From Escherichia coli (GTDB taxonomy: Bacteria; Pseudomonadota; Gammaproteobacteria; Enterobacterales; Enterobacteriaceae), in the NCBI RefSeq assembly GCF_046105845.1, contig NZ_CP151004.1: a DNA stretch of 64,000 bases; one strand, written 5' to 3'. Below, piece after piece: positions 636 through 63,430 of this stretch. How positions within the stretch are numbered: position 1 is the first letter of the stretch; each line of letters begins with the position of its first letter. The notes under the pieces were generated by a model, which made no database searches, was not told the DNA's origin, and saw only the letters and a program-made list of their open reading frames with translations. The position numbers and the translations under genes are program-made.

Positions 636-1079
636 TTAAACCTGCTTCGCCACAGCGATAATCGCCTCGCTTAACGCATTCAACCCCTGGCTGCGTGAGG
701 CGCTAAGCTGCGCACGCAATCCCAGCTCATCAAACAATGTCAGCGGCGACTGTGCCTGCAATTCGGCGGCGGTTTTCCCCTCAACGGCAGTCAACAACAC
801 CGCCAGCAGGCCGCGCACAATGCGCCCTTCGCTGTCGCCAAAGAAGTGCATTTTACCGTTTTCAGCCATGGTATATCCCAGCCAGACGCGGTTTTCGCAT
901 CCGGCAATCTCTTTAGCCTGTGCTTTTAATTCGTCTGGCAAAGCAGGAAGCTGTTTCCCCAGCATGATCAACTGGCGATATTTATCTTCCCATTGCGTCA
1001 ACGGTGCGAAGGTATTGCGTAACGTTTCTGCGGTTACGGTTGTGCCGAACGGATGTCCGGCGAATTGCGGGTTTGTCAT
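636..1079 (-). CDS. csdE: cysteine desulfurase sulfur acceptor CsdE (SufE-like)
   Basis: 147 aa ORF, SufE-family sequence, abuts csdA stop (coupled). Confidence 0.85.
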
Positions 1080-3989: not shown

Positions 3990-4385
3990 ATGACCAGCCG
4001 TTTTATGCTGATTTTCGCCGCCATTAGCGGCTTCATTTTTGTGGCTCTGGGCGCTTTTGGCGCGCATGTGTTAAGTAAAACCATGGGGGCCGTTGAGATG
4101 GGCTGGATCCAGACCGGTCTCGAATATCAGGCGTTCCATACGCTGGCGATCTTAGGTCTGGCGGTGGCAATGCAGCGTCGCATCAGTATCTGGTTTTACT
4201 GGAGTAGCGTTTTCCTCGCGTTAGGCACGGTGCTGTTCAGCGGCAGCCTTTATTGCCTGGCGCTGTCCCATCTGCGTTTGTGGGCATTTGTCACACCGGT
4301 TGGTGGCGTGAGCTTCCTCGCGGGCTGGGCGTTAATGTTAGTTGGTGCTATCCGTTTAAAGCGCAAGGGCGTAAGTCATGAATAA
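3990..4385 (+). CDS. ygdD: inner membrane protein, DUF423 family
   Basis: 131 aa hydrophobic ORF with about four TM segments; overlaps rlmM start by 8 bp. Confidence 0.85.
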
Positions 4386-21555: not shown

Positions 21556-21885
21556 ATGACCACTCATGACCGCGTTCGTCTCCAGTTGCAGGCGCTTGAA
21601 GCGTTACTGCGTGAACATCAGCACTGGCGAAACGATGAACCCCAGCCGCATCAATTTAACAGTACCCAACCGTTCTTTATGGACACTATGGAACCACTGG
21701 AGTGGTTGCAGTGGGTGCTGATCCCGCGAATGCACGATTTGTTAGATAACAACCAGCCATTACCGGGCGCTTTTGCCGTTGCACCCTATTATGAAATGGC
21801 GCTGGCGACGGACTACCCGCAACGCGCGCTTATTCTGGCTGAGCTGGAAAAACTGGATGCTCTTTTTGCGGATGATGCGAGCTAA
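21556..21885 (+). CDS. yqcC: DUF446 family protein YqcC
   Basis: 109 aa ORF; stop overlaps truC start. Confidence 0.85.
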   Translation: MTTHDRVRLQLQALEALLREHQHWRNDEPQPHQFNSTQPFFMDTMEPLEWLQWVLIPRMHDLLDNNQPLPGAFAVAPYYEMALATDYPQRALILAELEKLDALFADDAS

Positions 21886-24922: not shown

Positions 24923-26263
24923 ATGACGACACAATCCAGTCCTGTTATTACTGATATGAAAGTCATTCCGGTCGCCGGGCACGATAGCATGTTGCTTAAT
25001 ATTGGTGGTGCACATAACGCATATTTCACCCGCAATATTGTGGTACTCACCGATAACGCCGGGCATACCGGCATTGGTGAAGCGCCAGGCGGAGAGGTGA
25101 TTTATCAGACGCTTGCCGATGCTATTCCGATGGTTCTGGGCCAGGAAGTTGCGCGCCTGAATAAAGTGGTCCAGCAGGTGCATAAAGGTAATCAGGCCGC
25201 CGATTTTGATACCTTCGGTAAAGGCGCCTGGACTTTTGAATTGCGCGTTAATGCCGTGGCGGCGCTGGAAGCCGCCTTGCTTGACCTGCTAGGTAAGGCG
25301 CTGAATGTTCCGGTCTGCGAACTGTTAGGGCCAGGCAAGCAACGCGATGCTATTACCGTCCTCGGTTATCTGTTTTATATCGGTGATCGGACCAAAACCG
25401 ATCTTCCTTATCTGGAAAATACGCCGGGCAACCATGAGTGGTATCAATTGCGGCATCAGAAAGCGATGAACAGCGACGCCGTTGTGCGTCTGGCGGAAGC
25501 TTCACAGGATCGCTATGGCTTTAAAGATTTCAAACTTAAGGGCGGAGTGTTACCTGGCGAGCAAGAAATCGACACTGTTCGTGCATTGAAGAAACGCTTC
25601 CCGGATGCGCGGATTACCGTTGATCCCAACGGAGCATGGCTGCTTGATGAAGCTATTTCTCTGTGCAAAGGGCTGAATGATGTTCTCACCTATGCCGAAG
25701 ATCCATGTGGCGCAGAACAGGGTTTCTCCGGACGTGAAGTGATGGCGGAGTTTCGACGGGCGACCGGCTTGCCCGTCGCGACTAACATGATCGCCACCAA
25801 CTGGCGCGAAATGGGCCATGCGGTGATGCTCAATGCGGTAGATATTCCACTTGCCGATCCGCACTTCTGGACGCTTTCCGGTGCAGTCCGCGTGGCGCAA
25901 CTTTGCGACGACTGGGGGCTGACCTGGGGCTGCCATTCCAATAACCACTTTGATATCTCTCTGGCGATGTTTACCCATGTGGGTGCGGCGGCACCGGGTA
26001 ATCCTACCGCTATCGATACCCACTGGATTTGGCAGGAGGGCGATTGTCGCCTGACCAAAAATCCGCTGGAGATTAAAAACGGAAAAATTGCCGTTCCTGA
26101 TGCGCCCGGTCTGGGCGTGGAACTGGACTGGGAGCAGGTACAAAAGGCGCATGAGGCCTATAAACGTCTGCCTGGCGGTGCGCGTAACGACGCGGGCCCG
26201 ATGCAGTACCTGCTCCCCGGCTGGACCTTTGACCGTAAACGTCCCGTTTTCGGCCGTCATTGA
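24923..26263 (+). CDS. gudX: glucarate dehydratase-related protein GudX (enolase superfamily)
   Basis: 446 aa; paralogous to downstream gudD (shared blocks [41 protein letters not shown]). Confidence 0.9.
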
Positions 26264-34338: not shown

Positions 34339-34587
34339 ATGATCCACAGTAGCGTAAAGCGTTGGGGAAATTCACCGGCGGTGCGGATCCCGGCTACGTT
34401 AATGCAGGCGCTCAATCTGAATATTGATGATGAAGTGAAGATTGACCTGGTGGATGGCAAATTAATTATTGAGCCAGTACGTAAAGAGCCCGTATTTACG
34501 CTTGCTGAACTGGTCAACGACATCACGCCGGAAAACCTCCACGAGAATATCGACTGGGGGGAGCCGAAAGATAAGGAAGTCTGGTAA
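34339..34587 (+). CDS. mazE: antitoxin MazE (AbrB/SpoVT fold)
   Basis: 82 aa [27 protein letters not shown]; stop overlaps mazF ATG. Confidence 0.9.
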
Positions 34588-34922
34588 TGGTAAGCCGATA
34601 CGTACCCGATATGGGCGATCTGATTTGGGTTGATTTTGACCCGACAAAAGGTAGCGAGCAAGCCGGACATCGTCCGGCTGTTGTCCTGAGTCCGTTCATG
34701 TACAACAACAAAACAGGTATGTGTCTGTGTGTTCCTTGTACAACGCAATCAAAAGGATATCCGTTCGAAGTTGTTTTATCCGGTCAGGAACGTGATGGCG
34801 TAGCGTTAGCTGATCAGGTAAAAAGTATCGCCTGGCGGGCAAGAGGAGCAACGAAGAAAGGAACGGTTGCCCCAGAGGAATTACAGCTCATTAAAGCCAA
34901 AATTAACGTGCTGATTGGGTAG
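34587..34922 (+). CDS. mazF: mRNA interferase toxin MazF (ACA-specific endoribonuclease)
   Basis: 111 aa [35 protein letters not shown], PemK/MazF fold. Confidence 0.9.
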   Translation: MVSRYVPDMGDLIWVDFDPTKGSEQAGHRPAVVLSPFMYNNKTGMCLCVPCTTQSKGYPFEVVLSGQERDGVALADQVKSIAWRARGATKKGTVAPEELQLIKAKINVLIG

Positions 34923-41272: not shown

Positions 41273-42643
41273 GAGTTCCCCGCGCCAGCGGGGATAAACC
41301 GTTGTCCTGCTGAACCAAGTAAGCCACTGACAAGAGTTCCCCGCGCCAGCGGGGATAAACCGCATTATATCCTGTGCGTCGTTCATTTATTTACGAGTTC
41401 CCCGCGCCAGCGGGGATAAACCGGCCGCCGCATGGCAAAACAAACATCGGGGTACGAGTTCCCCGCGCCAGCGGGGATAAACCGGAACGGCGGCTATACG
41501 GATTCGACAGGTCAGCGAGTTCCCCGCGCCAGCGGGGATAAACCGGATTGAATGCAGATGGTTCAATGCTCGCATTCGAGTTCCCCGCGCCAGCGGGGAT
41601 AAACCGCCACGCGTGCTTTGAGTGGATGGTGTCGCTTGGAGTTCCCCGCGCCAGCGGGGATAAACCGATACATTATTAAGCGGGCAATTTTTCCAGTTTG
41701 AGTTCCCCGCGCCAGCGGGGATAAACCGAACGGCACGGCCTGCCGCCACGTCCCGCAGCTGAGTTCCCCGCGCCAGCGGGGATAAACCGGGGCCGTGTTT
41801 TCTAACGGATTCGCACATTGCGAGTTCCCCGCGCCAGCGGGGATAAACCGCAGCAGTTCAATACTGAAATCAACATGCCGATGAGTTCCCCGCGCCAGCG
41901 GGGATAAACCGCGCGGTGGGGTTTCATTCGCATCAATTCAAGGGAGTTCCCCGCGCCAGCGGGGATAAACCGGCGGTGAGTGAGAAAATCAGGACGGCTG
42001 CGAGGAGTTCCCCGCGCCAGCGGGGATAAACCGCGCCAAATATGCTGGTGGACTTCTACGCCGATGAGTTCCCCGCGCCAGCGGGGATAAACCGCTATCG
42101 ACGGTCAAGAAAATCCACCGGAAGAAGAGTTCCCCGCGCCAGCGGGGATAAACCGGCAGCAATATATTTGACATAATAGATAACCCGGAGTTCCCCGCGC
42201 CAGCGGGGATAAACCGACGCCAGGGGAGATATAACGCGCCTGTTATGGGAGTTCCCCGCGCCAGCGGGGATAAACCGGTCTTAACTAAAAGATGACCATT
42301 CAGTCGCAGGAGTTCCCCGCGCCAGCGGGGATAAACCGCGGCCCATAATATTAATATAATCCACATGAGGGAGTTCCCCGCGCCAGCGGGGATAAACCGC
42401 GCCGGAAATCATCGTTCTGTAATTGTCTAGCGAGTTCCCCGCGCCAGCGGGGATAAACCGCCCTGTTTGTTATTCCCATTATACGTATAAGAGAGTTCCC
42501 CGCGCCAGCGGGGATAAACCGCTTCTGGCTGGAGGTGGAGAAACGGAGGCAATGAGTTCCCCGCGTTAGCGGGGATAAACCGGATTTAGAGAGCCAGACG
42601 TTGGTCAGTTATTCGAGTTCCCCGCGTCAGCGGGGATAACCAT
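41273..42643 (+). CRISPR. Type I-E CRISPR array, 23 repeats / 22 spacers
   Basis: 29-bp repeat GAGTTCCCCGCGCCAGCGGGGATAAACCG recurs at exactly 61-bp period from 41273 to 42615; 32-bp unique spacers; repeat 22 has C>T (GCGTTAGCGGGG); terminal repeat degenerate (GCGTCAGCGGGGATAACCA). Confidence 0.97.
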
Positions 42644-45789: not shown

Positions 45790-46575
45790 ATGTCAATCGA
45801 ATCTCTCAATGCGTTCTCAATGGATTTTTTCTCCCTGAAAGGTAAAACCGCAATTGTTACCGGCGGGAATAGCGGTTTAGGCCAGGCATTTGCCATGGCG
45901 CTGGCCAAAGCAGGCGCAAATATCTTTATTCCAAGCTTCGTTAAAGATAACGGAGAAACAAAGGAAATGATTGAAAAACAGGGTGTTGAGGTGGACTTCA
46001 TGCAGGTGGATATCACCGCAGAAGGCGCGCCGCAGAAGATAATCGCCGCCTGTTGCGAACGTTTCGGTACCGTCGATATTCTGATTAACAATGCCGGTAT
46101 TTGTAAGCTGAATAAGGTGCTGGACTTCGGTCGTGCCGACTGGGACCCGATGATTGATGTGAACCTGACCGCCGCATTCGAGTTAAGCTATGAAGCGGCA
46201 AAAATTATGATCCCGCAGAAAAGCGGTAAAATCATTAATATCTGTTCATTGTTCTCTTACTTAGGTGGACAATGGTCACCTGCTTATTCTGCCACTAAAC
46301 ATGCTCTTGCCGGATTCACCAAAGCCTATTGCGATGAATTAGGTCAATATAATATTCAGGTGAATGGTATTGCTCCGGGATATTACGCTACCGATATCAC
46401 TCTGGCGACCCGTAGTAATCCAGAAACTAACCAGCGCGTTCTTGATCATATTCCGGCAAACCGTTGGGGCGATACTCAGGATTTAATGGGCGCAGCCGTA
46501 TTCCTCGCAAGTCCGGCATCGAATTATGTCAACGGACATTTATTAGTGGTTGATGGCGGTTATTTAGTGCGCTAA
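45790..46575 (+). CDS. ygcW: short-chain dehydrogenase/reductase YgcW (KduD/gluconate 5-dehydrogenase-like)
   Basis: ORF 45715 trimmed to MSIESLNAFS start; SDR cofactor motif TGGNSGLGQA and catalytic YSATK. Confidence 0.8.
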   Translation: MSIESLNAFSMDFFSLKGKTAIVTGGNSGLGQAFAMALAKAGANIFIPSFVKDNGETKEMIEKQGVEVDFMQVDITAEGAPQKIIAACCERFGTVDILINNAGICKLNKVLDFGRADWDPMIDVNLTAAFELSYEAAKIMIPQKSGKIINICSLFSYLGGQWSPAYSATKHALAGFTKAYCDELGQYNIQVNGIAPGYYATDITLATRSNPETNQRVLDHIPANRWGDTQDLMGAAVFLASPASNYVNGHLLVVDGGYLVR

Positions 46576-46644: not shown

Positions 46645-48099
46645 ATGTCTTTATCTCGCGCAGCGATTGTCGACCAGCTAAAGGAAATTGTTGGTGCAGA
46701 TCGCGTAATTACCGATGAAACAGTATTAAAGAAAAACAGTATTGACCGTTTTCGTAAATTTCCGGATATTCATGGTATTTATACTTTGCCGATTCCGGCA
46801 GCGGTCGTAAAACTCGGTTCCACAGAACAAGTCTCCCGTGTGCTGAATTTTATGAATGCGCACAAAATTAACGGTGTGCCGCGTACCGGCGCTTCCGCCA
46901 CTGAAGGTGGGCTGGAAACCGTTGTGGAAAACTCGGTGGTGCTCGACGGCTCCGCCATGAATCAAATCATTAATATTGATATTGAGAATATGCAGGCCAC
47001 GGCGCAATGTGGTGTTCCGCTGGAAGTGCTGGAAAACGCGTTGCGTGAAAAAGGTTACACCACGGGGCATTCTCCGCAGTCAAAGCCGCTGGCGCAGATG
47101 GGCGGCCTGGTAGCAACCCGCAGTATCGGGCAGTTCTCCACACTCTACGGCGCAATCGAAGATATGGTCGTTGGTCTGGAAGCGGTACTGGCAGATGGCA
47201 CCGTAACACGCATTAAAAACGTACCACGCCGCGCGGCAGGCCCGGACATTCGCCACATCATCATCGGCAACGAAGGTGCATTGTGCTATATCACTGAAGT
47301 AACAGTGAAAATCTTTAAGTTCACCCCGGAAAACAACCTCTTCTACGGCTATATCCTGGAAGACATGAAAACCGGCTTCAACATCCTGCGTGAAATCATG
47401 GTGGAAGGGTATCGTCCGTCGATCGCTCGTTTGTATGACGCTGAAGATGGCACCCAACACTTCACCCATTTTGCCGATGGTAAATGTGTGCTGATCTTTA
47501 TGGCTGAAGGTAACCCTCGCATTGCGAAGGCGACAGGCGAAGGGATTGCGGAAATCGTGGCACGTTACCCGCAATGCCAGCGAGTGGACAGCAAGCTGAT
47601 CGAAACCTGGTTTAATCACCTGAACTGGGGGCCGGATAAAGTGGCCGCTGAACGTGTGCAGATCCTCAAAACCGGCAACATGGGCTTTACCACCGAAGTG
47701 TCCGGCTGCTGGAGCTGCATCCACGAAATCTACGAAAGCGTTATTAACCGTATTCGTACCGAGTTCCCGCACGCCGACGACATCACCATGCTGGGCGGTC
47801 ACTCCTCTCACAGCTACCAGAACGGCACCAACATGTACTTCGTTTACGACTACAACGTTGTTGACTGTAAGCCGGAAGAGGAAATCGACAAGTACCACAA
47901 TCCGCTCAACAAAATCATCTGCGAAGAAACCATTCGCCTCGGCGGTTCGATGGTGCACCACCACGGTATTGGTAAACATCGCGTTCACTGGAGCAAACTG
48001 GAACACGGCAGCGCGTGGACGTTGCTGGAAGGTCTGAAAAAACAGTTCGATCCTAACGGCATTATGAATACGGGTACTATCTATCCGATTGAAAAATAA
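46645..48099 (+). CDS. ygcU: FAD-linked oxidase YgcU (GlcD / alkyl-DHAP synthase-like)
   Basis: 484 aa; FAD-binding PCMH-type domain. Confidence 0.85.
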   Translation: MSLSRAAIVDQLKEIVGADRVITDETVLKKNSIDRFRKFPDIHGIYTLPIPAAVVKLGSTEQVSRVLNFMNAHKINGVPRTGASATEGGLETVVENSVVLDGSAMNQIINIDIENMQATAQCGVPLEVLENALREKGYTTGHSPQSKPLAQMGGLVATRSIGQFSTLYGAIEDMVVGLEAVLADGTVTRIKNVPRRAAGPDIRHIIIGNEGALCYITEVTVKIFKFTPENNLFYGYILEDMKTGFNILREIMVEGYRPSIARLYDAEDGTQHFTHFADGKCVLIFMAEGNPRIAKATGEGIAEIVARYPQCQRVDSKLIETWFNHLNWGPDKVAAERVQILKTGNMGFTTEVSGCWSCIHEIYESVINRIRTEFPHADDITMLGGHSSHSYQNGTNMYFVYDYNVVDCKPEEEIDKYHNPLNKIICEETIRLGGSMVHHHGIGKHRVHWSKLEHGSAWTLLEGLKKQFDPNGIMNTGTIYPIEK

Positions 48100-48191
48100 T
48101 ATGTCAGGCAGCGTTCCGCTATGAGGGGCGTTGCCTTTTCGGCTTCTCAGGCGAGAAGCCGTTCTTATTACCGGACAATGAAGGGGTAAAG

Positions 48192-49529
48192 ATGAACACT
48201 TCACCGGTGCGAATGGATGATTTACCGCTTAACCGTTTTCACTGTCGAATTGCTGCGCTCACTTTCGGCGCGCACCTGACCGACGGTTATGTTCTCGGCG
48301 TCATTGGTTACGCCATTATTCAGCTTACACCCGCCATGCAACTGACGCCGTTTATGGCGGGAATGATTGGCGGCTCAGCACTCCTTGGTTTGTTTCTTGG
48401 CAGCCTGGTTCTGGGCTGGATCTCCGACCATATTGGGCGACAAAAAATCTTCACCTTCAGCTTTTTGCTGATTACGCTTGCTTCGTTTTTACAATTTTTT
48501 GCCACCACGCCAGAGCATCTTATTGGACTGCGCATTTTGATTGGCATTGGTCTGGGAGGCGATTACTCAGTCGGTCACACCTTGCTGGCTGAATTTTCCC
48601 CGCGCCGCCATCGCGGTGTTTTGCTGGGCGCATTCAGCGTAGTGTGGACGGTGGGCTATGTGCTGGCAAGCATTGCCGGACATCACTTTATTAGCGAAAG
48701 CCCGGAGGCCTGGCGCTGGCTGCTGGCATCGGCAGCTCTGCCCGCATTGTTGATTACGTTATTACGCTGGGGAACGCCAGAATCGCCACGCTGGCTACTG
48801 CGCCAGGGGCGTTTTGCAGAAGCTCACGCTATCGTGCATCGCTATTTTGGTCCCCATGTTTTACTGGGCGATGAAGTGGCAACGGCGACCCATAAACACA
48901 TCAAAACCTTGTTCTCTTCGCGCTACTGGCGGCGCACGGCGTTTAACAGCGTCTTCTTTGTCTGCCTCGTAATCCCATGGTTTGTGATTTATACCTGGCT
49001 GCCAACTATCGCCCAGACTATTGGTCTGGAAGATGCGTTGACTGCCAGCCTGATGCTTAATGCGTTGTTAATTGTGGGTGCGCTGCTGGGATTAGTTCTG
49101 ACGCACCTGCTGGCACATCGCAAATTTTTGCTGGGAAGTTTTTTGCTGCTGGCGGCAACGCTGGCAGTGATGGCTTGTTTGCCTTCCGGCAGTTCATTAA
49201 CGCTGCTGCTTTTTGTTCTCTTCAGCACCACCATTTCGGCAGTCAGTAATCTGGTGGGCATTTTGCCTGCGGAAAGTTTTCCTACTGACATTCGCTCGCT
49301 GGGCGTCGGTTTTGCCACCGCCATGAGTCGACTTGGCGCGGCGGTAAGTACTGGCCTGCTGCCGTGGGTGCTGGCGCAGTGGGGAATGCAAGTCACCTTA
49401 TTGCTCCTGGCGGCAGTGTTGTTGGTTGGTTTTGTTGTGACCTGGCTATGGGCACCAGAAACCAAAGCACTCTCGCTGGTGGCGGCGGGAAATGTAGGAG
49501 GTGCGAATGAACATTCTGTTAGCGTTTAA
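48192..49529 (+). CDS. ygcS: MFS sugar-type transporter YgcS
   Basis: 445 aa, 12 TM, sugar-porter-like motifs (GRQKIF, PESPRWL). Confidence 0.85.
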   Translation: MNTSPVRMDDLPLNRFHCRIAALTFGAHLTDGYVLGVIGYAIIQLTPAMQLTPFMAGMIGGSALLGLFLGSLVLGWISDHIGRQKIFTFSFLLITLASFLQFFATTPEHLIGLRILIGIGLGGDYSVGHTLLAEFSPRRHRGVLLGAFSVVWTVGYVLASIAGHHFISESPEAWRWLLASAALPALLITLLRWGTPESPRWLLRQGRFAEAHAIVHRYFGPHVLLGDEVATATHKHIKTLFSSRYWRRTAFNSVFFVCLVIPWFVIYTWLPTIAQTIGLEDALTASLMLNALLIVGALLGLVLTHLLAHRKFLLGSFLLLAATLAVMACLPSGSSLTLLLFVLFSTTISAVSNLVGILPAESFPTDIRSLGVGFATAMSRLGAAVSTGLLPWVLAQWGMQVTLLLLAAVLLVGFVVTWLWAPETKALSLVAAGNVGGANEHSVSV

Positions 49530-50286
49530 AGCCGAACCGGATGCCGGAATGCTGGCGGAAAAAGAGTGGCAGGCGGCGGCTCAGGGTAATAGCGGACCGG
49601 ATGTTTCGCTTCTGCGAAGTTTACTCGGTGCTGATGAACAGGCTGCCGCCGCGCTGCTGTTGGCGCAGAGAAAAAACGGTACGTCGATGTCTTTAACCGC
49701 GTTGAGCATGGGGGATGAACGGGCGTTGCACTGGCTGCGCTATCTCATGGCCCTTGGGTTTGAGGAAGCTGTATTGCTGGAGACAGCGGCAGATCTGCGC
49801 TTTGCGCCGGAATTTGTCGCTCGCCATATTGCCGAATGGCAGCGTCAGAATCCGCTGGATCTGATAATTACCGGCTGCCAAAGCAGCGAAGGGCAGAATG
49901 GGCAAACGCCATTTTTGCTGGCGGAAATGCTGGGCTGGCCCTGCTTCACCCAGGTGGAGCGTTTCACTCTCGACGCGCCGTTTATCACCCTCGAACAGCG
50001 TACTGAACATGGGCTGCGCTGTTGCCGGGTTCGCTTGCCTGCGGTGATTGCCGTGCGCCAGTGCGGTGAAGTGGCCTTGCCAGTACCGGGAATGCGCCAG
50101 CGAATGGCGGCGGGGAAAGCAGAAATTATCCGTAAAACTGTTGCTGCCGAATTGCCAGCGATGCAGTGTCTGCAACTGGCAAGAGCAGAGCAACGACGCG
50201 GAGCGAGGCTGATTGATGGGCAAACGGTAGCAGAAAAAGCGCAAAAGCTATGGCAGGACTATTTACGCCAAAGGATGCGGCCATGA
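49507..50286 (+). CDS. ygcR: electron transfer flavoprotein beta-subunit-like YgcR (FixA-like)
   Basis: Start MNILLAFKAEPD; ETF-beta fold; overlaps ygcS 3' end and ygcQ start. Confidence 0.8.
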   Translation: MNILLAFKAEPDAGMLAEKEWQAAAQGNSGPDVSLLRSLLGADEQAAAALLLAQRKNGTSMSLTALSMGDERALHWLRYLMALGFEEAVLLETAADLRFAPEFVARHIAEWQRQNPLDLIITGCQSSEGQNGQTPFLLAEMLGWPCFTQVERFTLDAPFITLEQRTEHGLRCCRVRLPAVIAVRQCGEVALPVPGMRQRMAAGKAEIIRKTVAAELPAMQCLQLARAEQRRGARLIDGQTVAEKAQKLWQDYLRQRMRP

Positions 50287-51143
50287 ATATCGCAATTGTG
50301 ACAATAAATCAGGAGAATGCCGCAATAGCGAGCTGGCTGGCGGCGCAGGATTTCAGCGGTTGTACCCTGGCGCACTGGCAGATTGAACCTCAGCCCGTAG
50401 TGGCGGAACAGGTGCTGGATGCGCTGGTGGAACAGTGGCAGCGAACGCCTGCGGACGTTGTTCTCTTTCCGCCGGGAACGTTTGGCGATGAACTGTCGAC
50501 CCGGCTGGCCTGGCGTTTACATGGTGCAAGCATCTGCCAGGTGACTTCGTTAGATATTCCAACCGTAAGCGTGCGCAAATCCCACTGGGGAAATGCGCTA
50601 ACGGCGACGCTGCAAACAGAAAAACGCCCGCTATGCCTTTCCCTGGCGCGTCAGGCGGGAGCAGAGAAAAACGCCACGTTGCCCTCTGGTATGCAGCAAC
50701 TGAATATTGTCCCGGGTGCGCTTCCCGACTGGCTGGTTAGCACAGAGGATCTGAAAAATGTTACCCGCGACTCATTAGCTGAAGCCAGACGGGTGCTGGT
50801 GGTGGGGCAGGGCGGAGAGGCAGATAACCAGGAAATCGCTATGCTGGCAGAAAAGCTGGGAGCCGAAGTGGGCTACAGTCGGGCGCGAGTGATGAACGGT
50901 GGCGTTGATGCTGAAAAAGTGATTGGTATTTCCGGACATTTGCTGGCACCTGAGGTGTGTATTGTTGTTGGCGCTTCCGGCGCAGCAGCGTTAATGGCGG
51001 GCGTACGCAATAGCAAGTTTGTGGTGGCGATTAATCATGACGCCAGCGCGGCGGTATTTTCACAGGCAGATGTTGGCGTGGTTGATGACTGGAAAGCGGT
51101 GCTGGAGGCACTGGTGACAACCATTCACGCAGATTGCCAATAA
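50283..51143 (+). CDS. ygcQ: electron transfer flavoprotein alpha-subunit-like YgcQ (FixB-like)
   Basis: ORF 50250 trimmed to MNIAIVTINQ; C-terminal ETF-alpha FAD-binding region; ATGA overlap with ygcR stop. Confidence 0.8.
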   Translation: MNIAIVTINQENAAIASWLAAQDFSGCTLAHWQIEPQPVVAEQVLDALVEQWQRTPADVVLFPPGTFGDELSTRLAWRLHGASICQVTSLDIPTVSVRKSHWGNALTATLQTEKRPLCLSLARQAGAEKNATLPSGMQQLNIVPGALPDWLVSTEDLKNVTRDSLAEARRVLVVGQGGEADNQEIAMLAEKLGAEVGYSRARVMNGGVDAEKVIGISGHLLAPEVCIVVGASGAAALMAGVRNSKFVVAINHDASAAVFSQADVGVVDDWKAVLEALVTTIHADCQ

Positions 51144-51147
51144 CGTG

Positions 51148-51253
51148 CTGCCGGATGATCCTGCCTACGGTTCTGGGCTGGGGACTTGTAAGCCTGATAA
51201 GACGCGTCAAGCGTCGTATCAGGCGCTGAATGTCGGATGTGGCGTGCAGCCTA
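51148..51253. repeat. BIME (tandem REP units) between convergent ygcQ and ygcP
   Basis: tgccggatgatcctgcctac...gcctgataagacgcgtcaagcgtcgtatcaggc...gtcggatgtggcgtgcagcctac: several REP-type palindromes. Confidence 0.6.
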
Positions 51254-51289
51254 CAAAGCACATAAATTCAACTCGTTACGAGTATCCCG

Positions 51290-51865
51290 TCAAAGCAATT
51301 TTTTCGCTAACGTCCAGACCCCGGTATTCGTGGTGGAAAGCGCCACAACACCCGCGTTAATCGCATTACGCGCATCTTCTTCATCGCACACCAGCCCGCC
51401 GGCAATCAGCGGTTGGCGGATTTTCTCCGTCACCCAGCCCAGCACTTTAGGCATACAGCCTGGCAGGATCTCAATACAATCCGGATTCGATTGCGCAACT
51501 TGCTTATCAATGTTGTGAAACGAAATTGAATCAACAATAAACAGGCGATGAATACAGAAAAAACCTTCCGCTCTTGCCGCTTTCAACATTGAGGCTTTGG
51601 TACTGATAATGCCGTCCGCCTCAGTCACCAGTTTCAAAAACTGAATCACCACTTCTTTATTTGACGCGCCTTCCAGCAAATCAACATGAATAAAAGCATA
51701 TTTTCCGGCATTTTTAATCTTTTTAACGATTTGACTAATGGTGCAGATATTGCCGTACAACACGGAAATAAACTGGCATTCAGAGTCGATTGCCAGTTGC
51801 AGGCTGGCATTATCTTTAACGGCAGCAATCACCGGATTCTGGCGGAGCAGGTGTAAGAGGGGCAT
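51290..51865 (-). CDS. ygcP: GlpP-like glycerol-3-phosphate-responsive antiterminator family protein YgcP
   Basis: 191 aa MPLLHLLRQNPVIAAVKDNASLQ; GlpP/G3P-antiterminator fold. Confidence 0.8.
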   Translation of the reverse strand: MPLLHLLRQNPVIAAVKDNASLQLAIDSECQFISVLYGNICTISQIVKKIKNAGKYAFIHVDLLEGASNKEVVIQFLKLVTEADGIISTKASMLKAARAEGFFCIHRLFIVDSISFHNIDKQVAQSNPDCIEILPGCMPKVLGWVTEKIRQPLIAGGLVCDEEDARNAINAGVVALSTTNTGVWTLAKKLL

Positions 51866-51881
51866 AAATTATCCTTATTAT

Positions 51882-52142
51882 TTATCCAAAACGGTAGGTG
51901 ATGCCGAATCCGGAAGGCGGATAGCGCCACTGTTGTAGTGTTGATTCGTCGCACAGCAAACGGCAGGTGCCACACTCCAGGCAGCCGCGATAATCAACGC
52001 GTAAGTCACCTTCCGGTGTGAGCGAAAAAAGACCAGCCGGACAAGCGTTAATCAACCGTTGTACCGTCTGGCGCTCAACGGAGTCAGCCGGAACAATGTG
52101 CGGCGCATCGGCAACGCGCCAGAGATTACGGGCTACAGACAT
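51882..52142 (-). CDS. ygcO: ferredoxin-like protein YgcO (FixX-like)
   Basis: ORF trimmed to MSVARNLW (86 aa); Cys motif CLECGTCRLLC; overlaps ygcN 3' end. Confidence 0.75.
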   Translation of the reverse strand: MSVARNLWRVADAPHIVPADSVERQTVQRLINACPAGLFSLTPEGDLRVDYRGCLECGTCRLLCDESTLQQWRYPPSGFGITYRFG

Positions 52143-54162: not shown

Positions 54163-55962
54163 ATGACGACACAGGTCCCACCTTCCGCGTTGCTTCCGTT
54201 GAACCCGGAGCAACTGGCACGCCTTCAGGCGGCCACGACCGATTTAACTCCTACCCAGCTTGCCTGGGTTTCTGGCTATTTCTGGGGCGTGCTCAACCAG
54301 CAGCCTGCTGCGCTTGCAGCGACGCCAGCGCCCGCCGCAGAAATGCCGGATATAACTATTATCTCCGCTTCGCAAACCGGCAATGCGCGCCGGGTTGCTG
54401 AAGCATTACGCGATGATTTATTAGCGGCAAAACTGAACGTTAAGCTGGTGAACGCGGGCGACTATAAATTCAAACAAATCGCCAGCGAAAAACTGCTCAT
54501 CGTGGTGACGTCAACGCAAGGGGAAGGGGAACCGCCGGAAGAAGCCGTCGCGCTGCATAAGTTCCTGTTCTCCAAAAAAGCGCCAAAGCTGGAAAACACT
54601 GCATTTGCCGTGTTTAGCCTCGGCGATAGCTCTTATGAATTTTTCTGCCAGTCCGGGAAAGATTTTGACAGCAAGCTGGCGGAACTGGGCGGTGAACGCC
54701 TGCTCGACCGTGTCGATGCCGACGTTGAATACCAGGCTGCTGCCATCGAGTGGCGCGCCCGCGTGGTTGATGCGCTTAAATCGCGTGCGCCTGTCGCGGC
54801 ACCTTCGCAATCCGTCGCTACTGGCGCGGTAAATGAAATCCACACCAGCCCGTACAGCAAAGACGCGCCGCTGGTGGCGAGCCTCTCTGTTAACCAGAAA
54901 ATTACCGGGCGTAACTCTGAAAAAGACGTTCGCCATATCGAAATTGACTTAGGTGACTCTGGCCTGCGTTACCAGCCGGGTGACGCGCTGGGCGTCTGGT
55001 ATCAGAACGATCCGGCACTGGTGAAAGAACTTGTCGAACTGCTGTGGCTGAAAGGCGATGAAACTGTCACCGTTGACGGCAAAACGCTGACCCTGAGCGA
55101 AGCGCTACAGTGGCACTTTGAACTCACCGTCAACACCGCGAATATTGTTGAGAACTACGCCACGCTTACCCGCAGCGAAACGCTGCTGCCGCTGGTGGGC
55201 GATAAAGCCAAGTTACAGCATTACGCCGTGACCACGCCGATTGTTGACATGGTGCGTTTCTCTCCGGCGCAACTGGATGCCGAAGCGCTGATTAACCTGC
55301 TGCGCCCGCTGACCCCGCGCCTGTATTCCATCGCCTCCTCGCAGGCGGAAGTCGAGAACGAAGTACACGTTACCGTTGGTGTGGTGCGTTACGACGTGGA
55401 AGGCCGCGCCCGTGCCGGTGGTGCCTCCAGTTTCCTCGCGGACCGTGTGGAAGAAGAGGGCGAAGTCCGCGTCTTTATCGAACATAACGATAACTTCCGC
55501 CTGCCAGCCAATCCGGAAACGTCGGTGATTATGATTGGCCCAGGCACCGGCATCGCGCCGTTCCGCGCCTTTATGCAGCAACGCGCCGCCGACGAAGCGT
55601 CGGGGAAAAACTGGCTGTTCTTTGGCAACCCGCACTTTACGGAAGATTTCCTCTACCAGGTGGAATGGCAGCGCTACGTCAAAGAGGGCGTGCTGACGCG
55701 TATCGATCTTGCCTGGTCGCGCGATCAAAAAGAAAAAATTTACGTACAAGACAAACTGCGCGAACAGGGCGCGGAGCTGTGGCGCTGGATCAATGACGGT
55801 GCCCACATTTATGTCTGCGGCGACGCTAATCGCATGGCGAAAGACGTTGAGCAGGCACTTCTGGAAGTGATTGCCGAATTTGGTGGCATGGACACCGAAG
55901 CGGCGGATGAATTTTTAAGTGAGCTGCGCGTAGAGCGCCGTTATCAGCGAGATGTCTACTAA
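54163..55962 (+). CDS. cysJ: sulfite reductase [NADPH] flavoprotein alpha-component CysJ
   Basis: 599 aa; flavodoxin-like FMN domain plus FAD/NADPH ferredoxin-reductase domain. Confidence 0.95.
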
Positions 55963-61921: not shown

Positions 61922-63430
61922 ATGAATTTGCTTATTGATAACTGGATCCCTGTACGCCCGCGAAACGGGGGGAAAGTCCAAATCATAAATCTGCAATCGC
62001 TATACTGCAGTAGAGATCAGTGGCGATTAAGTTTGCCCCGTGACGATATGGAACTGGCCGCTTTAGCACTGCTGGTTTGCATTGGGCAAATTATCGCCCC
62101 GGCAAAAGATGACGTTGAATTTCGACATCGCATAATGAATCCGCTCACTGAAGATGAGTTTCAACAACTCATCGCGCCGTGGATAGATATGTTCTACCTT
62201 AATCACGCAGAACATCCCTTTATGCAGACCAAAGGTGTCAAAGCAAATGATGTGACTCCAATGGAAAAACTGTTGGCTGGGGTAAGCGGCGCGACGAATT
62301 GTGCATTTGTCAATCAACCGGGGCAGGGTGAAGCATTATGTGGTGGATGCACTGCGATTGCGTTATTCAACCAGGCGAATCAGGCACCTGGTTTTGGTGG
62401 TGGCTTTAAAAGCGGTTTACGTGGAGGAACACCTATAACCACCTTCGTATGTGGGATCGATCTTCGCTCGACGGTGTTACTCAATGTCCTCACAATACCT
62501 CGTCTTCAAAAACAATTTCCCAATGAATCAAATACGGAAAACCAACCTACCTGGATTAAGCCTGTCAAGCCCAATGAATCTGTGCCAGCTTCGTCAATTG
62601 GGTTTGTCCGTGGCTTATTCTGGCAACCAGCGCATATTGAATTATGCGATCCCATTGGGATTGGTAAATGTTCTTGCTGTGGACAGGAAAGCAATTTGCG
62701 TTATACAGGTTTTCTTAAGGAAAAATTTACCTTTACAGTTAATGGGCTATGGCCCCATCCGCATTCCCCTTGTCTGGTAACAGTCAAGAAAGGGGAGGTT
62801 GAGGAAAAATTTCTTGCTTTCACCACCTCCGCACCATCATGGACACAAATCAGCCGAGTTGTGGTAGATAAGATTATTCAAAATGAAAATGGAAATCGCG
62901 TGGCGGCGGTTGTGAATCAATTCAGAAATATTGCGCCGCAAAGTCCTCTTGAATTGATTATGGGGGGATATCGTAATAATCAAGCATCTATTCTTGAACG
63001 GCGTCATGATGTGTTGATGTTTAATCAGGGGTGGCAACAATACGGCAATGTGATAAACGAAATAGTGACTGTTGGTTTGGGATATAAAACAGCCTTACGC
63101 AAGGCGTTATATACCTTTGCAGAAGGGTTTAAAAATAAAGACTTCAAAGGGGCCGGAGTCTCTGTTCATGAGACTGCAGAAAGGCATTTCTATCGACAGA
63201 GTGAATTATTAATTCCCGATGTACTGGCGAATATTAATTTTTCCCAAGCTGATGAGGTAATAGCTGATCTACGAGACAAACTTCATCAATTGTGTGAAAT
63301 GCTATTTAATCAATCTGTAGCTCCCTATGCACATCATCCTAAATTAATAAGCACATTAGCGCTTGCCCGCGCCACGCTATACAAACATTTACGGGAGTTA
63401 AAACCGCAAGGAGGGTCATCAAATGGCTGA
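61922..63430 (+). CDS. casA: Cascade large subunit Cse1 (CasA, Cas8e)
   Basis: 502 aa MNLLIDNWIPVRPRNGGKVQIINLQSLYCSRDQWRLSLPRDD, recognised as E. coli Cse1. Confidence 0.95.
   Translation: MNLLIDNWIPVRPRNGGKVQIINLQSLYCSRDQWRLSLPRDDMELAALALLVCIGQIIAPAKDDVEFRHRIMNPLTEDEFQQLIAPWIDMFYLNHAEHPFMQTKGVKANDVTPMEKLLAGVSGATNCAFVNQPGQGEALCGGCTAIALFNQANQAPGFGGGFKSGLRGGTPITTFVCGIDLRSTVLLNVLTIPRLQKQFPNESNTENQPTWIKPVKPNESVPASSIGFVRGLFWQPAHIELCDPIGIGKCSCCGQESNLRYTGFLKEKFTFTVNGLWPHPHSPCLVTVKKGEVEEKFLAFTTSAPSWTQISRVVVDKIIQNENGNRVAAVVNQFRNIAPQSPLELIMGGYRNNQASILERRHDVLMFNQGWQQYGNVINEIVTVGLGYKTALRKALYTFAEGFKNKDFKGAGVSVHETAERHFYRQSELLIPDVLANINFSQADEVIADLRDKLHQLCEMLFNQSVAPYAHHPKLISTLALARATLYKHLRELKPQGGSSNG

Follow-up and report, generated by a model that had tools for sequence, protein, structure and literature searches.

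The window analysed here (the whole stretch of DNA, 64 kb in length) is an E. coli-type chromosome segment, along which the genes lie in the order tcdA, csdE-csdA, ygdI, gcvA-ygdD-rlmM, the fuc genes, xni, sdaBC, ppnN, queF, syd, yqcC-truC-yqcA, gudPXD, barA, rlmD-relA-mazEFG, pyrG-eno, ygcG, queE, a CRISPR array, ygcE-yqcE, ygcW-U-S-R-Q, ygcP-O-N, queD, cysJIH, cas3, casA-casB and the start of cas7e. The gene models came from RefSeq: the coding sequences of the complete genomes NZ_CP062824.1 and NZ_AP027512.1 were placed on the window with blastn, and all 53 complete transferred genes have intact start and stop codons with zero internal stops. The only exception to this transfer was the 5' end of ygcS, for which the window's own ATG at 48192 was taken. 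Three genes of the ygc group are as follows:

48192..49529, plus strand: ygcS, MFS transporter, 445 aa (open reading frame list; RefSeq name; Pfam Sugar_tr/MFS_1)
49507..50286, plus strand: ygcR, electron-transfer-flavoprotein beta, FixA-like, 259 aa (Pfam ETF, E = 4.6e-17)
50283..51143, plus strand: ygcQ, electron-transfer-flavoprotein alpha, FixB-like, 286 aa (Pfam ETF_alpha and ETF; RefSeq model)

YgcR belongs to the electron-transfer-flavoprotein (ETF) beta family (FixA/EtfB), as PF01012 scores 62.8 bits against a cutoff of 26.7, and in a PDB sequence search it matches the solved ETF beta chain 1efp_B (E = 3.6e-12). Its partner YgcQ carries the ETF_alpha domain of Pfam. The YgcR protein has already been detected on 2D gels (PMC2646832).

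Nine of the 39 adjacent same-strand gene pairs in the window overlap, by 1 to 23 nt. The earlier note had named nine overlaps with their lengths, and all of them were found exactly as given, with none missed and none extra:

1079..1079, minus strand: csdA into csdE, 1 nt (TAATG); RefSeq-model mapping, CsdE N-terminal peptide in K-12
4378..4385, plus strand: ygdD into rlmM, 8 nt (ATGAATAA); RefSeq-model mapping, RlmM N-terminal peptide MNKVVLLCR
21885..21885, plus strand: yqcC into truC, 1 nt (TAATG); RefSeq-model mapping, truC ATG the sole start within 33 codons
34587..34587, plus strand: mazE into mazF, 1 nt (TAATG); RefSeq-model mapping, PDB MazF chains
49507..49529, plus strand: ygcS into ygcR, 23 nt (ATGAACATTCTGTTAGCGTTTAA); RefSeq-model mapping, cross-species comparison
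50283..50286, plus strand: ygcR stop and ygcQ start, 4 nt (ATGA); sequence, cross-species comparison
52133..52142, minus strand: ygcN into ygcO, 10 nt (ATGTCTGTAG on the minus strand); RefSeq-model mapping, cross-species comparison
55962..55962, plus strand: cysJ into cysI, 1 nt (TAATG); RefSeq-model mapping, CysI N-terminal peptide
63423..63430, plus strand: casA into casB, 8 nt (ATGGCTGA), with the ribosome-binding site AAGGAGGG just ahead; RefSeq-model mapping, PDB CasB chains

In all nine pairs the genes are co-directional neighbours that leave no intervening space for a terminator or a promoter. Such overlaps are already known, both as a general phenomenon and from the annotation of these particular genes, and they are a normal bacterial operon layout. 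The span under which the overlaps had been reported (49501-50286) is that of the ygcR gene and takes in only two of the nine junctions, and its first coordinate has to be corrected. Position 49501 is a GTG which opens the longest open reading frame, two codons upstream of the ygcR ATG at 49507, and it would give an overlap of 29 nt; the figure of 23 nt corresponds to the ATG at 49507, not to the GTG. As for the interpretation attached to the overlaps, the gene names, the operon-type layout and the trimmed start codons match RefSeq, but an overlap alone is no demonstration of translational coupling. Furthermore, since the length of an overlap follows from the start that is chosen, to use the overlap as support for a start codon is partly circular. 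The starts are, however, backed by independent evidence.

For ygcR, such evidence is found in its ribosome-binding site and in related genomes. The site can be read directly in the sequence:

49496..49501, plus strand: AGGAGG ribosome-binding (Shine-Dalgarno) site of ygcR, within the 3' end of ygcS, 5 nt ahead of the ATG

The duplex energy with the 3' end of 16S rRNA is -11.5 kcal/mol for the ATG at 49507 and -6.1 kcal/mol for the GTG at 49501, a codon which the AGGAGG at 49496-49501 physically overlaps. A scan of a species-representative genome collection with YgcR returned seven loci, from E. albertii, E. whittamii, Escherichia sp., two E. coli-labelled records (87-89% identity), Raoultella terrigena and Citrobacter sedlakii. 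A stop codon stands directly before the ygcR ATG (position -1) in E. whittamii and C. sedlakii, which rules out the GTG, and it was rejected on these two grounds. The GGAG core ahead of ygcR is present in 8/8 sequences compared, the ygcS stop ends 23 nt into ygcR in all seven other-species loci, and 21 of the 23 columns of this overlap are invariant (the window plus the seven other loci). All seven likewise have ATGA at the ygcR/ygcQ junction and, between ygcN and ygcO, an identical overlap of 10 nt (ATGTCTGTAG) preceded by a conserved CAGGAG. The three ygc overlaps (-23, -4 and -10) are thus kept, at a protein identity of about 70%, in Escherichia species as well as in Raoultella and Citrobacter. 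Two further start candidates were rejected by the same comparison: between ATG 50250 and the start of ygcQ, E. coli SCPM-O-B-8794 has an in-frame stop, and the codon GTG 52178 for ygcO is absent in Raoultella and Citrobacter.

For the other six downstream genes (csdE, rlmM, truC, mazF, cysI and casB), no start codon stands between the upstream in-frame stop and the annotated ATG, and the next start candidates lie 5 to 43 codons downstream with a ribosome-binding site that is no better. The N-terminal proteomics which the earlier note had asked for exists for three of the nine downstream genes and agrees with the annotation: in the TRAINSPOTTER N-terminomics study of E. coli K-12 (2026, Table S1), N-terminal peptides of CysI, RlmM and CsdE begin at the start given in the database, all three being backed by Ribo-RET and/or INRI-seq, and for CysI and RlmM (peptide MNKVVLLCR) the Ribo-RET/INRI evidence stands alongside the N-terminal peptide (PMC13245402). 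The published peptides of all three are identical to the window translations. The same Table S1 holds no entry for truC, mazF, mazE, ygcR, ygcQ, ygcO, casB, yqcC or ygdD (PMC13245402). For truC, mazF, ygcR, ygcQ, ygcO, casB and others, the INRI-seq supplements list alternative start sites only, not detection of the annotated start. We suspect that laboratory cultures express the ygc and cas operons only poorly. Protein families and structures add to the N-terminal data: residues 1-71 of RlmM match positions 1-71 of the Pfam profile RlmM_FDX, residues 1-160 of CasB and 1-111 of MazF are matched by PDB chains of 160 and 111 aa, respectively, and for TruC there was no match at E <= 1e-30 in the PDB sequence search.

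It could be argued that some overlaps are artefacts of annotation, the true starts of the downstream genes lying further 3', so that these genes would not overlap at all. In-frame starts do exist slightly downstream (rlmM TTG +5, mazF ATG +8, ygcQ GTG +5, cysI GTG +9 and ygcR ATG +14), and long annotated overlaps are often misannotations (PMC10666635). However, all nine overlaps here are short (<=23 nt) and outside that suspect class, and most of the downstream alternatives have a weak ribosome-binding site or none. The TTG of rlmM is about equal in score to the annotated ATG (-5.5 vs -5.2 kcal/mol), and here the N-terminal peptide decides for the ATG, as the peptides do for CysI and CsdE, while the RlmM_FDX profile begins at RlmM residue 1. 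The residues of YgcR ahead of M15 are needed for the alignment offset of the ETF beta fold (against PDB ETF beta chains, query 27 = chain 22), and the ATG, ribosome-binding site and overlap of the ygc genes are kept across genera. An artefact of this kind is therefore extremely improbable. Programmed frameshifting that would fuse the overlapping reading frames was also considered and set aside, as no downstream gene lacks a start codon, all the pairs are separate coding sequences in RefSeq, and CasB and MazF were solved as separate chains.

The spacing of the genes is not random. A spacing of -1, -4 or -8 is found in 7 of the 18 pairs lying within +/-30 nt, where about 1.1 would be expected if spacings were uniform (binomial P = 5e-5), and these are the commonest spacings in E. 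coli K-12 (-4, -1 and -8; PMC10666635). In total, 9/39 pairs in the window (23%) are spaced at -8..+6, and in E. coli K-12 this range holds 707 of 2987 co-directional pairs (24%; PMC10666635). It can be seen that the spacing in the window is non-random and yet ordinary for E. coli. Seven of the nine overlapping pairs are within -8..+6 (four at -1, one at -4 and two at -8), while ygcN/ygcO (-10) and ygcS/ygcR (-23) are outside it. Overlaps of the same classes are also seen in the flanking annotated regions, namely ptrA/recB (8 nt), recB/recD (1 nt), cysN/cysC (1 nt) and ispF/truD (4 nt).

The junctions differ in the strength of the ribosome-binding site of the downstream gene, which is strong for ygcR and casB (-11.9 kcal/mol for the latter), moderate for mazF (-6.9 kcal/mol), ygcO and ygcQ, and weak for cysI, truC, csdE and rlmM (cysI, truC and csdE -3.3 to -4.9 kcal/mol, with truC at -3.3 and cysI at -3.6). 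A ribosome-binding motif inside the upstream gene is common but not obligatory, and its role in coupling is reported to vary (PMC6728339). The opening energy of the -18..+12 region, calculated for 52 gene starts, does not differ between overlapping and non-overlapping genes (Mann-Whitney P = 0.18), folding of 76-nt segments at the nine junctions gave no gain in stability over shuffled sequence (z between -1.44 and +0.83), and compensatory pairs are absent from the consensus fold calculated for the ygcS/ygcR junction across 8 species. Among the downstream genes only ygcR has a hairpin; it begins 7 nt downstream of the AUG and lacks significance (z = -1.44). RNA structure as the basis of coupling at these junctions was therefore set aside as unsupported.

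Two coupling routes are recognised (PMC12548453): the terminating ribosome may reinitiate, or the upstream ribosome may unfold RNA that is inhibitory. Since the opening energy of the start regions shows no difference between overlapping and non-overlapping genes, the second route is without computational support here. As for the first, at overlaps of 1, 4 and 8 nt translational coupling may reasonably be inferred, and the 10 nt overlap of ygcN/ygcO is probably coupled as well. To hypothesize, a ribosome terminating on the upstream gene would come to stand directly over the downstream start, and it would then either reinitiate there or keep the site open for a new ribosome, by which the outputs of the upstream and downstream proteins would be tied together. 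The weak ribosome-binding sites of cysI, truC and csdE fit such a dependence on upstream translation. Coupling cannot be a simple one-for-one relay, since the stoichiometries of the complexes, which we take to be CasA1:CasB2 in Cascade and CysJ8:CysI4 in sulfite reductase, are not 1:1. We found no published direct test of coupling for any of the nine pairs, the nearest being kis-kid, a relative of mazEF.

An alternative, which we regard as unlikely but which deserves to be weighed, is that the overlaps are real but functionally neutral, being tolerated in compact operons where new ribosomes start the downstream genes at their own sites. Their origin would then be simple, as an ATG already gives three of the four bases of ATGA and the loss of a stop extends a gene to the next stop, and according to a review the -4 spacing is abundant probably because it is easily evolved. 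The ribosome-binding sites of ygcR and casB are strong enough that they could allow independent initiation, and the starts of cysI, rlmM and csdE were recognised in vitro by INRI-seq with only 30 nt of upstream sequence (flags in PMC13245402); since the fragments carry no more than this, initiation on them took place without upstream translation. The unexceptional RNA structure at the nine junctions points in the same direction, and so does the YgcS tail, which upstream of the overlap varies by an indel of 12 nt, the overlap itself being fixed by the conserved N-terminus of YgcR. Reporter tests of native E. coli ATGA pairs have given results on both sides, as the bioBF pair was initiated de novo, whereas four of the five pairs tested were strictly coupled (PMC6728339). 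Neutrality is further opposed by the poor sites of cysI, truC and csdE and by the exact spacing kept across genera at the three ygc junctions compared. Short-distance pairs are also 4.5-fold enriched for subunits of complexes (PMC10666635), and here six of the nine pairs encode partners, known or predicted (CsdA-CsdE, MazE-MazF, YgcR-YgcQ, YgcN-YgcO, CysJ-CysI and CasA-CasB). Taken as a whole, we consider it very probable that the nine overlaps are genuine, correctly annotated and situated between co-directional neighbours in E. coli operons, with coupling likely at 1, 4 and 8 nt and probable also at 10 nt.

The 23 nt junction of ygcS/ygcR is a separate case. The efficiency of coupling falls with the length of the overlap and was nil at -25 nt in one systematic study, which also speaks for the neutral reading and makes this junction a poor candidate for reinitiation. 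The Pfam match Sugar_tr/MFS_1 spans residues 27-430 of YgcS, so the last ~15 residues form a tail outside the transporter domain, and it is this C-terminal tail that has the indel between species. YgcR has a highly conserved N-terminus, MNILLAFK, and the ygcS stop is the TAA contained in its codons 7-8 (TTT-AAA). The overlap looks like a by-product, as the ygcS frame meets its first stop within these eight strongly conserved initial codons of ygcR. Coupling at this junction is doubtful, and independent initiation of ygcR at its own perfect AGGAGG is the more likely case. Contrary to this, the overlap, the AGGAGG and the hairpin, which holds the ygcS stop, could together form a dedicated control device: on reaching the end of ygcS, ribosomes would open the hairpin and so permit initiation of ygcR, or else they would block the site and keep the level of YgcR under that of YgcS. 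We find this reading improbable, well below the neutral one. If it were true, efficient coupling would reach an overlap length where it is absent from synthetic constructs.

The pairs of the window can be compared with known systems. The E. coli pairs hyfHI, astDB, ydbH/ynbE as well as menDH are coupled by termination and reinitiation (Huber et al. 2019, PMC6728339; Huber et al. 2023, PMC10666635), and the pairs here resemble them in being co-directional, in the -4/-1/-8 spacing, in having the ribosome-binding site inside the upstream gene and in that many encode partners in complexes. They differ in that none of the nine is among the pairs tested, and the overlaps of 10 and 23 nt are outside the range of -8..+6 which was taken as predictive of reinitiation (PMC10666635). 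The kis-kid (parD) system of plasmid R1 is related to mazE-mazF and likewise has the antitoxin gene ahead of the toxin gene; in it, translational coupling keeps toxin synthesis down if no antitoxin is produced. Coupling is demonstrated there, unlike for chromosomal mazEF, and mazF has a moderate ribosome-binding site of its own. In atpHA and rplJL, which are coupled by RNA unfolding (PMC12548453, PMC6728339), the downstream start lies in or next to the upstream coding sequence, as it does here, so upstream ribosomes must traverse it. Unlike in these two, no stable or covarying structure was found that hides any of the nine start regions.

The gene starts and the operon structure assigned to the window are sound, with the one correction that 49501 should read 49507. 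Beyond quality control this has little meaning, as the window fits the genome-wide picture of E. coli quantitatively. What the analysis adds is that the length of the overlap and the strength of the ribosome-binding site sort the nine junctions into three groups: cysI, truC, csdE, rlmM and ygcQ are the likely cases of reinitiation, ygcR and casB are likely independent starters, and mazF and ygcO are intermediate between them. This split could guide experimental tests of translational coupling.

ATG 48192 (MNTSPVRMDD) is the conserved start of ygcS. The ygcS of strain LR-28 has 473 aa in RefSeq, with a start 22 nt past ygcU; the corresponding ATG is absent from the window, where the frame reads ...YEGRCLF... 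(48100-48192), and Raoultella ygcS likewise has no upstream Met. In the ygcU-ygcS spacer, a hairpin rich in GC (CGGCTTCTC...GAGAAGCCG) precedes a stretch rich in T (TTCTTATT), and the two together look like a terminator or an attenuator.

At the other end of ygcS, where its last 23 nt overlap ygcR (49507-49529), a further hairpin is predicted:

49514-49560, predicted hairpin of 13 + 4 base pairs, beginning 7 nt past the ygcR AUG and enclosing the ygcS stop codon

This hairpin was predicted in all eight species compared; compensatory changes were looked for in these eight species and none was found, and its stability was not significantly above that of shuffles (z = -1.44).

One more place in the window where overlap or its absence hinges on the start chosen is gudX/gudD, as TTG 26260 taken as the gudD start would give a four-base TTGA overlap with the gudX stop codon (26260-26263), while the RefSeq start, ATG 26284, gives a spacing of +20 nt.

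The gene content between relA and mazG also varies:

34339-34922, mazE-mazF, flanked by relA and mazG

In NZ_CP062824.1, the complete genome that best matches the window's left part, mazEF is absent and the relA-mazG gap is just 95 nt (46253-46349 of the comparison locus L001, against 34339-34922 of the window). The toxin-antitoxin module shows a presence/absence polymorphism.

Further to the right lies a repeat region:

41455-42522, CRISPR array with type I-E repeats, between queE and ygcE (repeat GAGTTCCCCGCGCCAGCGGGGATAAACCG, period 61 nt)

Two mechanical ORFs on the minus strand (41387-41818 and 41989-42366) are the CRISPR array translated and not genes.

When measured against 5,426 complete E. 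coli genomes, similarity was uneven along the window: the top match for 1-25000 (NZ_CP062824.1) reached 99.4%, those for 39001-64000 (split into several pieces) and 48000-52000 only 95.7% and 98.2%. The ygc-cys genes showed 95-97% identity to the best genome, whereas casA and casB exceeded 99%. The right half of the window originates from a lineage or a recombinant segment that is scarce among complete genomes.
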